A stretch of 20,000 nt of DNA, from IMG/VR virus record IMGVR_UViG_3300033757_000130; one strand, written 5' to 3'. Below the pieces are notes generated by a model. The model saw only the letters and a program-made list of their open reading frames with translations, did no database searches and had not been told where the DNA came from. This DNA is from an uncultured virus (IMG/VR IMGVR_UViG_3300033757_000130) (lineage: Duplodnaviria; Heunggongvirae; Uroviricota; Caudoviricetes). Of this stretch, positions 1 through 2,198 are shown in pieces. The translations under genes were made by a program, and so were the position numbers. Position 1 is the first letter of the stretch. The number at the start of each line of letters is the position of its first letter.

Positions 1-654
1 AAATAAAGTATTTGGTGTTACTGCGCTAGTAATTGTAAAATCTTCAGTTTCTGCGATTAAGCGATATAACTTATTGAAAGTATCTTCAAAATAATCAGCA
101 TCAAGATCGACTTGAATAAGTGTTTCGTCATCCAAATCATTATCTTGCATATATTTTACTGCTGGAATCAATCTACAAAAATCGTATGGAATATCAACTG
201 GAATGAAGACGATCTTATCACAGTTAACTTCAATAAACATTTGAATATCTTCTGGAAGTTCTTCAACAGTAGCAAATTCAGAAACAGGACATGTTAACAA
301 ACATGTGCTTTGAGTATCTGCTAAATGAAGCTTATTCAAAAGTGAAGGTAGTTTTTCCACATTATTTCTATTGATTGCAACAGAATAATAATTTTTTAAA
401 GCCTTTGAATCTAGTTGAATTGCTGCATTGTAGATGTAATCTTCAATGTATTGTGGTTCAACTACATCTTCGCCAATCAAAACAGTTTTGCCATTTTGAC
501 GAAGAACTAGCTTACTTTTTTCTGCAATAAGCGATGCAGAATAGTTGTCAACTCTACATGATACGATATTGTATTTTACACGTAGAGGTGCAAGAATTTT
601 TAATACTTCAGGCGTTAAATTGCCTATTGTTAATAAATCGATATATTTTTTCAT
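1..654 (-). CDS. Partial gene running off the window; possible degenerate GT-A-fold glycosyltransferase-like protein
   Basis: Not in the ORF track. My translation from ATG at 654 (GAGGTG RBS upstream) stays open to base 1: MKKYIDLLTIGNLTPEVLK...FCRLIPAVKYMQDNDLDDETLIQVDLDADYFEDTFNKLY. The last segment resembles the 'KLIP...IIT(I/V)DDD..Y' DxD region of GT-A glycosyltransferases. The ORF is solid; the function is tentative. Confidence 0.55.
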   Translation of the reverse strand, partial: MKKYIDLLTIGNLTPEVLKILAPLRVKYNIVSCRVDNYSASLIAEKSKLVLRQNGKTVLIGEDVVEPQYIEDYIYNAAIQLDSKALKNYYSVAINRNNVEKLPSLLNKLHLADTQSTCLLTCPVSEFATVEELPEDIQMFIEVNCDKIVFIPVDIPYDFCRLIPAVKYMQDNDLDDETLIQVDLDADYFEDTFNKLYRLIAETEDFTITSAVTPNTLF

Positions 655-660
655 AAATTC

Positions 661-820
661 ACCTCAAATCTACTTTATTTATGAACTACTCAACTGCTAA
701 AGACAGTTGATTTTCTGTCTTTAGAGAATTACGATTTTCCGACTCAAGGTTACTATTGTAACCAGTATCAATCGGCTTAGATATAACAAGTACATCAGAT
801 TCCCCGGTTCCGTCAGGGTA
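661..820 (-). ncRNA. Predicted omegaRNA/reRNA of element 1: scaffold overlapping the tnpB 3' end plus ~20-nt flank-derived guide AAATAAAGTAGATTTGAGGT
   Basis: Established TnpB architecture. Scaffold GCCGATTGATACTGGTTACAATAGTAACCTTGAGTCGGAA covaries with the element 2 scaffold. The 5' boundary is approximate. Confidence 0.7.
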
Positions 821-1963
821 CTTTGTATTTAAAATCTTTAAACCTTCGTTAAGTATGTTAATTGCAGCGTTTTCATCTCTATCAAGATAAGTTCCACATT
901 CTGGACAAGTCCAAAAACGTTCATCAAGTTTTAAACCTTTATACTTAAATCCACATTTATGACAAAGTTTTGAACTAGGATAGAACCTATCTATTTTTAA
1001 GTAGATTCTATGTTTCTGCTCTGACTTGTATTTAATCATATTACAAAACGTACCAAATGATGCATCTTGAATAAATTTAGCAAGTTTGTAATTCTTTAAC
1101 ATACCTTTAACATTCAAATCTTCACTAATAATGACTTGGTTTTCATCAGTTATTCTTGAAGACACTTTATGTTGGAAGTCTTTTCTTTGGTTTTTAATAT
1201 GTTCGTGTAACTTTGCTATCTTTAGCTTTTTCTCTTCATAGTTCTTACTGTTTTTCTTCATTTTTGAAAGAAGTCTTTGTTCTTTAGCGAGTTTCTTTTG
1301 ACTTTTTCTAAAGAACTTAGGATTATTTTCAACAGTGCCATCGTCAAAGATAGCAAAATCCTTAATACCCAAATCAAATCCAGTTGCAAAGAACTTTGGT
1401 TCTTTGTATTCTGGTTCTTTCATTTCTACACAAATTGAACAATAATAATTTCCGCAATGTGACTTAGATATAGTGACATTATTGATATGAATTTTAAACC
1501 AATCTAAATCATTATAGTTAGCAAATTGAATTATTCCTAAAGATGGTATTTTAATATGGTTTCTATCAACAACTCTTATATCACCAGTATTAGATAATTT
1601 CTCTTTTGAAGGATAAGTACAAGCAATTCTGAATGAATCCTTTGATTTACCTTTCTTTTTGAATTTAGGAAAATTCTGTTGATTGTTTGTCTTCTTTGTT
1701 TTTCCGTTAAAGAAATTCTTAAAGGAGTTCATACAATCATTATAAGAATTACAAATAGATTGTGCAGAAACTTCTGTTAGAAAAGTCCATTCTTCTTTTA
1801 AGGATTTGATTTTTGGATTAAATGAAAGTCTATAATCTTCCCATAGTTCTTTTTTCATACCAAGGACTTTATTATATACAAATCTTGTACATCCGAAGGT
1901 TCTTTCAATGACCTTTGTCTGTTTAATATTTGGATATATTCTAATGTTTAGTCCTTTTAACAT
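686..1963 (-). CDS. tnpB: TnpB RNA-guided endonuclease (IS605 OrfB), 425 aa
   Basis: N-terminal IRIYPN...FGCTRFVYN HTH, FPKFKKK, RuvC-I GFDLG, RuvC-II SEDL, zinc finger CHKC..CPEC, RuvC-III DRDENAA. All three catalytic acidic residues are present. Confidence 0.96.
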   Translation of the reverse strand: MLKGLNIRIYPNIKQTKVIERTFGCTRFVYNKVLGMKKELWEDYRLSFNPKIKSLKEEWTFLTEVSAQSICNSYNDCMNSFKNFFNGKTKKTNNQQNFPKFKKKGKSKDSFRIACTYPSKEKLSNTGDIRVVDRNHIKIPSLGIIQFANYNDLDWFKIHINNVTISKSHCGNYYCSICVEMKEPEYKEPKFFATGFDLGIKDFAIFDDGTVENNPKFFRKSQKKLAKEQRLLSKMKKNSKNYEEKKLKIAKLHEHIKNQRKDFQHKVSSRITDENQVIISEDLNVKGMLKNYKLAKFIQDASFGTFCNMIKYKSEQKHRIYLKIDRFYPSSKLCHKCGFKYKGLKLDERFWTCPECGTYLDRDENAAINILNEGLKILNTKYPDGTGESDVLVISKPIDTGYNSNLESENRNSLKTENQLSLAVE

Positions 1964-2062
1964 TTAAAAATCCTACTGTGGTAGTAGCACAATAGGATTT
2001 CAGCTATTTCTAGCCTTTAAATTCTTATTCCTATTATTAGAAGCTACTACCTTTCTAATAAT
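1964..2062 (-). promoter_or_regulatory. Structured 5' leader of tnpB1 (three hairpins, kissing loop, SD in stem)
   Basis: ATTATTAGAA-AG-GTAGTAG-C-TTCTAATAAT; GGCTA-GAAA-TAGCT; AAATCCTATTGTG-CTACTAC-CACAGTAGGATTT. Loop 1 is the reverse complement of loop 3. Confidence 0.75.
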
Positions 2063-2072
2063 CTCTTTAATA

Positions 2073-2080
2073 TATTTATA
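2073..2080 (-). promoter_or_regulatory. T4-type late promoter TATAAATA inside element 1
   Basis: Exact TATAAATA 10 nt upstream of the leader's first hairpin. Confidence 0.7.
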
Positions 2081-2108
2081 TAAGTAGCATTTCATTTTTT
2101 GTATTTTT

Positions 2109-2155
2109 GTGCCGATTCATATCAACTACTGAAGATAGTTGATTTTTCTCGGCAC
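2109..2155 (-). repeat. Left-end subterminal palindrome of element 1 (predicted TnpA-binding hairpin)
   Basis: Outer stem GTGCCGA...TCGGCAC encloses TCAACT..AGTTGA followed by TATGAA. Element 2's left end has the same layout. Confidence 0.7.
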
Positions 2156-2170
2156 GTTTCTATAAAATGA

Positions 2171-2198
2171 AAAACACCAAGAAAATTCTTGGTGTTTT
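2171..2198 (-). terminator. Intrinsic terminator after the 131-aa gene
   Basis: AAAACACCAAGAA-tt-TTCTTGGTGTTTT inverted repeat with T-tail, about 20 nt after the stop. Confidence 0.8.

Follow-up and report, generated by a model that had tools for sequence, protein, structure and literature searches.

The window, a 20,000-nucleotide stretch of an uncultured virus (IMG/VR IMGVR_UViG_3300033757_000130), belongs to a low-GC T4-like phage and, beyond two tnpB elements, carries UvsY-like, SbcC-like and SbcD-like genes; the nearest proteins to SbcD are the gp47 proteins of T4-like cyanophages (~31%). The closest record, 36.9 kb long, is a fragment with a completeness rating of 11%, from which a genome size of roughly 330 kb follows. 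Sequencing runs with window sequence (those with a small share left out) are chiefly metagenomes of landfills and digesters; they belong to 13 studies, one of them possibly the source of the window. The two tnpB genes, at 686-1963 (minus strand) and 2938-4131 (plus strand), are 45% identical, and annotated phages hold no close TnpB, their best match being 40%. With the 131-aa protein encoded upstream of element 1 as query, one of two loci was a true relative, contig L001, whose flanks are 98-99% identical to the window and which carries neither element 1 nor element 2. A further related phage, G007 (248 kb, 98% complete), is GC-richer. Entries from bacterial bins account for 7 of 17 clade loci from genome collections, and all five that were inspected, by reading only, have phage-like neighbours.

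The features of element 1 and its site are the following.

2171..2198 (minus strand), intrinsic terminator-like hairpin closing the upstream 131-aa gene (2220-2615); retained in the empty allele L001.
2162..2166 (minus strand), TTTAT transposon-adjacent motif (TAM), the final three bases of which are the first three of the empty-site TATAAATA; from the empty allele and Logan joints.
681..2161 (minus strand), element 1, a non-autonomous tnpB element of the IS200/IS605 family, 1481 bp; from the empty allele and Logan joints that skip 1481 bases.
2109..2155 (minus strand), left-end stem-loop with the DNA guide AAAA at 2144-2147, predicting TTAT; fold z -5.3.
2073..2080 (minus strand), element-borne T4-type late box TATAAATA; motif, and its presence in close relatives (see below).
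1961..2072 (minus strand), leader with three hairpins between box and tnpB; loop covariation.
686..1963 (minus strand), tnpB, 425 aa, with RuvC motifs GFDLG (195), SEDL (280) and DRDENA (361) and a zinc finger; domain and motif reading.
681..830 (minus strand), predicted omegaRNA scaffold overlapping the 3' end of tnpB, 5' limit approximate; fold z -2.3, present in tnpB-less mini-elements.
681..715 (minus strand), right end with DNA guide GAAA at 712-715, hairpin at 690-710 and terminal TTCAT at 681-685; fold and covariation.
676..683 (minus strand), rebuilt promoter box CATAAATA, 7/8; sequence, the sole box in scar alleles L136 and L149.
661..680 (minus strand), predicted RNA guide, equal to the right flank; exact match to the empty allele.
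652..665 (minus strand), RBS GAGGTG and start codon (ATG) of the downstream gene; sequence.
1..654 (minus strand), downstream gene (309 aa in L001), for which sequence gives a glycosyltransferase-2-like lead only and searches gave no Pfam or PHROG match.
18856..18863 (minus strand), intact late box after a terminator; in related contigs (L139, L157) a 236-bp mini-element has inserted here at TTTAT|AAATA.

Element 1 is a polymorphic, tnpB-only IS200/IS605 element (IS605/IS1341-type) inside a predicted late promoter. It is inserted 3' of a 4-5 nt motif with no target duplication and a precise empty joint, has subterminal hairpins at both ends (z -5.3 and -3.0) and no terminal inverted repeats, and shows a direct 25-nt repeat common to its left and right ends; tnpA is absent within it. 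Its TnpB comprises HTH, OrfB_IS605 and zinc-finger domains with a complete RuvC D-E-D and matches the ISDra2 TnpB structures 8bf8 and 8h1j with E 4e-71. Two other identities were considered and rejected: an IStron (group I intron plus IS), since Rfam gave no match up to E 1 across the element and the site is intergenic, and a TldR (nuclease-dead TnpB repressor), since the RuvC catalytic residues and both transposon ends are present.

The initial annotation had derived the boundaries by joining the two flanks on the minus strand. The terminator hairpin (2171-2198), the left flank CATTTTAT, ending at 2162, and the right flank AAATAAAGTAGATTTGAGGTGAATTTATG, spanning 680 to 652, are as it described, and so is the layout of the intact junction at 18894-18829. 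The junction it predicted is present in the element-free sister contig L001: the empty site has the layout terminator-TTTAT|AAATAAAG-RBS-ATG and reads terminator-CATTTTAT|AAATAAAGTAGATTTGAGG. Among four runs examined, Logan contigs of runs X3 and X15 contain a joint that skips exactly 1481 bases, again matching the predicted boundaries, and X3 holds empty and full forms of the site together. A third allele, present in L136, L149 and run X17 (joint skipping 1432), carries a 49-bp end-fusion scar, which would stem from recombination between the 25-nt repeat of the two ends. Here the terminator stands upstream of the downstream gene with only CATAAATA in front, and the earlier observation that TTCAT plus AAATA recreates this 7/8 box at 676-683 proved correct, the scar alleles keeping the box. 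The predicted guide is likewise supported by the empty and scar alleles. RNA runs X15 and X17, which exist as contigs only, contain the empty and scar joints, respectively, together with patchy element pieces, from which no level, strand or start can be read. A copy 98% identical to element 1 occupies another site (L135), and X17 contains another 49-bp scar-type copy, with loose ends, beside TATTTAT|A at a different site. Given this short copy elsewhere, the scar may itself be mobile (PATE-like). The DNA of the 131-aa gene (2220-2615, minus strand) is only ~77% identical to the empty allele, as against 99% in the outer flanks, which could be read as a variable cassette or a co-conversion tract.

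In this family the four-base DNA guide at the foot of each end hairpin pairs position by position with the motif at which the element is cut. Because the two ends of element 1 share three bases (ATA), the empty joint alone permits four registers, and it is the covariation of ends and guides that settles the register. Among 25 right ends, non-independent as they come from related sequences, GAAA goes with TCAT in 12, GAAG with TCAC in 10 and GAAG with TCAT in 2, one being misparsed; 22 of the 24 parsed ends thus conform. The left-end guide feet also conform, with one exception (L085). Covariation of DNA guides with the target motif is described for tnpB elements (Meers et al., 10.1101/2023.03.14.532601), and in IS608 the left guide AAAG goes with TTAC (PMC5027513). 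For element 1, a left guide AAAA and a right guide GAAA with terminal TTCAT give TTTAT; this motif, already proposed from the sequence alone, is borne out by the empty allele and by the covariation. The TAM followed by at least six guide bases matches the empty site and nothing else in the window and G002. With five guide bases, one other late box in the window and two more in G002 also match; self-targeting of other late boxes was rejected, no match extending past the fifth base. Full and scar alleles part the TAM from the guide, and TTCAT differs from TTTAT. The empty allele is a perfect and unique match, and with the RuvC motifs intact its cleavage by TnpB and the omegaRNA is predicted.

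Concerning the box itself, the T4-type late promoter TATAAATA lies at -13 to -6 and its first T is poorly conserved (PMC1524935). It is this poorly conserved first T that the insertions described here replace. The raw number of TATAAATA in the window is no greater than chance (6 versus 3.5 expected; 32 of 200 shuffles reach 6), and each of the six is followed shortly by an ORF on its own strand. A survey with simple ORF calls, over 241,495 unmasked bases from the window plus G002-G005, placed 36 of 93 TATAAATA in intergenic DNA, which makes up 10% of the total, and 21 at 12-90 nt ahead of an ATG on the same strand; the corresponding numbers for CATAAATA are 13 of 42 and 8. In G007, 40 of 53 TATAAATA are located 12-90 nt ahead of an ATG, and CATAAATA natively precedes four ORFs. 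Scanning 31 of the 44 ORFs behind boxes gave five matches to baseplate, terminase or head-protease families (one of them, a terminase piece, behind CATAAATA), four to endonuclease families, two to weak or unknown families and 20 ORFs without a match. Related phages have TATAAATA directly ahead of late genes; the gene downstream of element 1 has no assigned class. Matches to the gp55-like phrog_234 are weak (E about 1e-6) and occur in 3 of 10 records; profiles detected no gp55 in G002 or in the 98%-complete G007, nor did tblastn with the G003 protein in G007. Four HNH or homing-type endonuclease genes of G007 (L237, L238) also stand behind TATAAATA.

Protein scans and an omegaRNA pattern (32 viral, 62 metagenome and 17 genome-collection stretches) supplied the relatives of element 1, with 104 core matches including duplicates. 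The tally took each TTTAT-family site once, provided that both ends could be read, leaving out duplicates, truncated loci, the element-2 group, distant elements and copies with decayed left ends (L096, L102/104/120/138, L130, L162, L181, L207). Full-length elements measure 1458-1486 bp, one internally deleted copy apart. The ATAAATA core was overlapped at 13 of 20 sites, with a perfect empty TATAAATA at nine, and in 12 of the 13 an ORF starts 6-63 nt past the box. Later-fetched sites, judged by eye, lie at the box in four of six cases, all bottom-strand; one of them had earlier been half-seen as L008, and without it this set alone gives 3/5 (p=0.075). In total, 17 of 26 sites overlap the core and nine lie elsewhere. 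Compared with 22.1% of intergenic TTTAT (70/317), this gives p=2.7e-6, and compared with 40% (the G007 null being 57/146, or 39%) p=0.008. The insertion bias to the late-promoter box is real, with an enrichment of 1.7- to 3-fold, the lower value applying under the 39% null of the GC-richer G007; box sites represent ~12% of all TTTAT. As every site is a survivor, selection and target choice are inseparable in this tally.

Insertion at late promoters, suspected from the sequence alone, does recur, at 17 of 26 sites against 22-39% of intergenic TTTAT; the geometry is mostly not the one proposed for it. Forward T-tail insertion at TTTAT|AAATA accounts for two of 26 sites, element 1 and the 236-bp mini-element of L139 and L157, and as a recurring geometry it was not significant (2/20 versus 2.5%, p=0.09). 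The bottom-strand TTTAT is used at 15 of the 17 box sites. Among the first 11 bottom-strand TATTTAT| sites, the first base of the element is A in nine, restoring TATAAATA for the diverging gene.

Element 1 also brings its own late box. TATAAATA lies 40-200 nt ahead of tnpB in 5 of 7 close viral loci versus 2 of 77 distant ones (3 skipped), the distant loci being GC-richer (0.44). The internal box of element 1 overlaps a possible sigma-70 -10 sequence. Between box and tnpB start codon follows the leader with its three hairpins and no clear RBS. Loop 1 (2044-2050) can pair with the loop (1981-1987) of the last hairpin, which is terminator-like and immediately precedes tnpB. This pairing is 7/7 in 22 of 23 rows, the loop sequences varying between copies yet staying complementary, and both tnpB genes of the window have such a leader. 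Across 18 different sequences of loop 1, all 126 of 126 possible pairs are made, whereas shuffles average 68 and reach 93 at most; the imperfect row, L209, shares loop 1 with L109 and was dropped by de-duplication. The two alternative folds of element 1, long-range helix and terminator, differ by no more than 1.7 kcal/mol, which suggests that the leader may act as an attenuator. Rfam gave no match to the leader, and leader model R1 recovered only its five source copies in 544,663 bases from 37 sources.

The tnpB-less mini-elements retain a late box directly ahead of the omegaRNA. Such minis have both ends intact in L095, L098, L139 and L208 and a decayed left end in L096, L102/L104/L120, L181 and L207; most have a late-type box directly before the omegaRNA, which may be a trans-acting guide. 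At the L104/L181 site the right flank starts with TATAAATA. In L141, L156, L096 and L104, the left TTTAT is followed by 4-7 bases identical to the start of the right flank, as if the target had overwritten the left end. In G002:1-360, L162 and L092, a tnpB with no left end stands behind a gene that we read as ssb-like; its right end is decayed (TTAAC) in related contigs, and it is possibly immobilised or domesticated. A tnpA gene is present in 1 of 14 records, phage contig L227, where an autonomous tnpA-tnpB element with similar ends encodes a TnpA of PF01797 (E 2e-34) and a TnpB 68% identical to that of element 1; none was found in cis or in the nearest record. In this member (L227:1858-3790) a hairpin loop of the tnpA leader appears, by eye, able to pair with a segment further upstream and also with the ribosome-binding region.

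The second element of the window consists of the following parts.

2712-2716 (plus strand), TATAC motif of element 2; from the empty allele.
2717..4147 (plus strand), element 2, of a paralogous family, TnpB 45% identical, ending in TTCAC; from the empty allele and run X10.
2821-2828 (plus strand), late-type box; sequence.
2829-2940 (plus strand), leader; loop complementarity.
2938-4131 (plus strand), tnpB; ORF.

TTTAT had been thought to precede this element as well. It is present at 2710-2714, two bases off register; the TTTAT register was rejected as it fails to reproduce the empty allele, which fits only TATAC|, and run X10 agrees. The guides are GAAG, with TTCAC, at the right end and ATAG at the left, and the insertion site lies outside any TATAAATA box. 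The target of element 2 (window 4148-4160; L001, L171) shows a one-base indel at guide position 6-7 in empty and filled alleles, and X15 has TATAC duplicated there.

We consider it likely that element 1 is an RNA-guided homing element adapted to phages and that its family's insertions at promoter edges are the ones to survive selection; the repeated use of one promoter motif suggests a selfish element living in phage genomes at little cost. A Y1 TnpA provided in trans by the autonomous sibling would paste element 1 3' of TTTAT within TATAAATA; the terminal TTCAT would rebuild CATAAATA, and the downstream gene would probably retain a late promoter. After forward insertions the transcripts of this gene could come from the rebuilt box or from read-through; the mini of L139 restores no more than CACAAATA but has its own box, and it lacks the leader. 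The late box of the element would drive leader, tnpB and omegaRNA late in infection, with the omegaRNA ending in the flank AAATAAAGTAGATTTG. In a co-infected cell, TnpB would then cut TTTAT plus guide in sister phages that lack the element, and repair of the cut genome from the carrier copy would spread the element, like a free-standing T4 homing endonuclease. Such 'non-restorative homing' between co-infecting phages is mentioned as a theoretical possibility in PMC13565253. Since TATAAATA holds a bottom-strand TTTAT at its poorly conserved first position, insertions there would spare promoter, RBS and gene and survive selection, and this survival is proposed to produce the family-wide bias to the box.

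The bias might instead reflect target choice and not only survival, TnpA reaching single-stranded TTTAT preferentially at late promoters, for example in open complexes or through the sliding clamp that activates T4-type late transcription. In favour, 15 of the 17 box sites share one strand and one register, the scar-type copy of X17 also lies beside TATTTAT|A, IS608 TnpA binds the beta clamp (PMC5027513) and gp45 activates late promoters (PMC1524935). We nevertheless hold this to be unlikely: the bottom-strand register is the only TTTAT within the box and the least harmful, so selection predicts the identical pattern, all sites are survivors, and nine of 26 lie elsewhere. Less likely still is an incidental overlap, in which an ordinary AT-motif IS enters AT-rich gaps that are mostly promoters and terminators, with nothing adapted and downstream expression unpreserved by design. 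That 22-39% of intergenic TTTAT already touch the core is in line with it, and so is the forward geometry of element 1 taken alone (2/20 versus 2.5%, p=0.09). However, the observed 65% exceeds both nulls and the 26-site test weakens it, the clade as a whole conserves the internal box and the leader, which minis retain, and the predicted site at 18856-18863 was independently occupied in L139. A TnpB domesticated as a TldR-like, RNA-guided regulator that binds many late boxes via TTTAT plus AAATA is very improbable: even though the guide begins with AAATA, TAM plus five bases fits other boxes (one in the window, two more in G002) and some relatives with one end missing keep omegaRNA or tnpB at a fixed place, the RuvC motifs and both ends are intact, the site is polymorphic, a 98% identical copy sits elsewhere (L135) and no off-target matches at least six guide bases.

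The preferred reading, RNA-guided homing with selection for promoter-edge insertions, could be extended to a TnpB lineage confined to T4-like jumbo phages, in which the late box is a landing pad, the TAM lies within the promoter, the ends repair the displaced base, self-expression runs from a copy of that promoter under a kissing-loop attenuator, TnpA is actively drawn to late promoters (by open complex or sliding clamp) and each copy is a programmable homing endonuclease against sister phages; in this full form we regard it as doubtful.

Among known systems, the ISGst2 and Geobacillus stearothermophilus tnpB elements (Meers et al., 10.1101/2023.03.14.532601) share with the present family the TTTAT TAM, a TTCAC-type terminus, guides covarying at both ends, a donor joint of TAM plus right flank that equals the TnpB target, and protein-free PATE derivatives. 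Unlike them, element 1 resides in a T4-like jumbo phage, lacks tnpA, ends in TTCAT, has a late box and kissing-loop leader, and belongs to a family with a bias to late promoters. IS608 and ISDra2 have similar Y1 peel-and-paste ends and insert 3' of a 4-5 nt motif, and the IS608 pair AAAG/TTAC recurs in three of the four element-2-group sites with that guide (PMC5027513). The motifs of the two elements here are AAAA/TTAT and ATAG/ATAC, and the accessible text of PMC5027513 describes no promoter-overlap bias. Free-standing homing endonuclease genes of T4 (seg, mob, I-TevI) face the same promoter problem; they are intergenic, use or replace phage promoters, are expressed late and spread in co-infection (PMC2988022), as is proposed here. 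They are protein-guided and have no transposon ends, whereas element 1 would read an RNA guide from its flank and reach new sites via TnpA. The literature searched (subscription papers and bioRxiv supplements lay outside it) gave no report of a bias of TnpB elements to phage late promoters, nor of this kissing-loop leader.

Because empty, full and scar alleles of a single site circulate, the locus is a natural setting in which TnpB homing from one co-infecting phage to another can be tested. It would also represent a near-neutral transposon that manages without an intron, its target motif lying at the dispensable edge of a promoter with no -35 element and its ends restoring the missing base. 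Moreover, the family supplies matched sets of TnpB and TAM (TTTAT, TTTAC, TATAC) and a native TnpA. At G003:6150-7760, a distant TnpB (about 40%) with similar ends and the same late box lies beside the gp55-like gene; these ends and the promoter may be common to several TnpB lineages.
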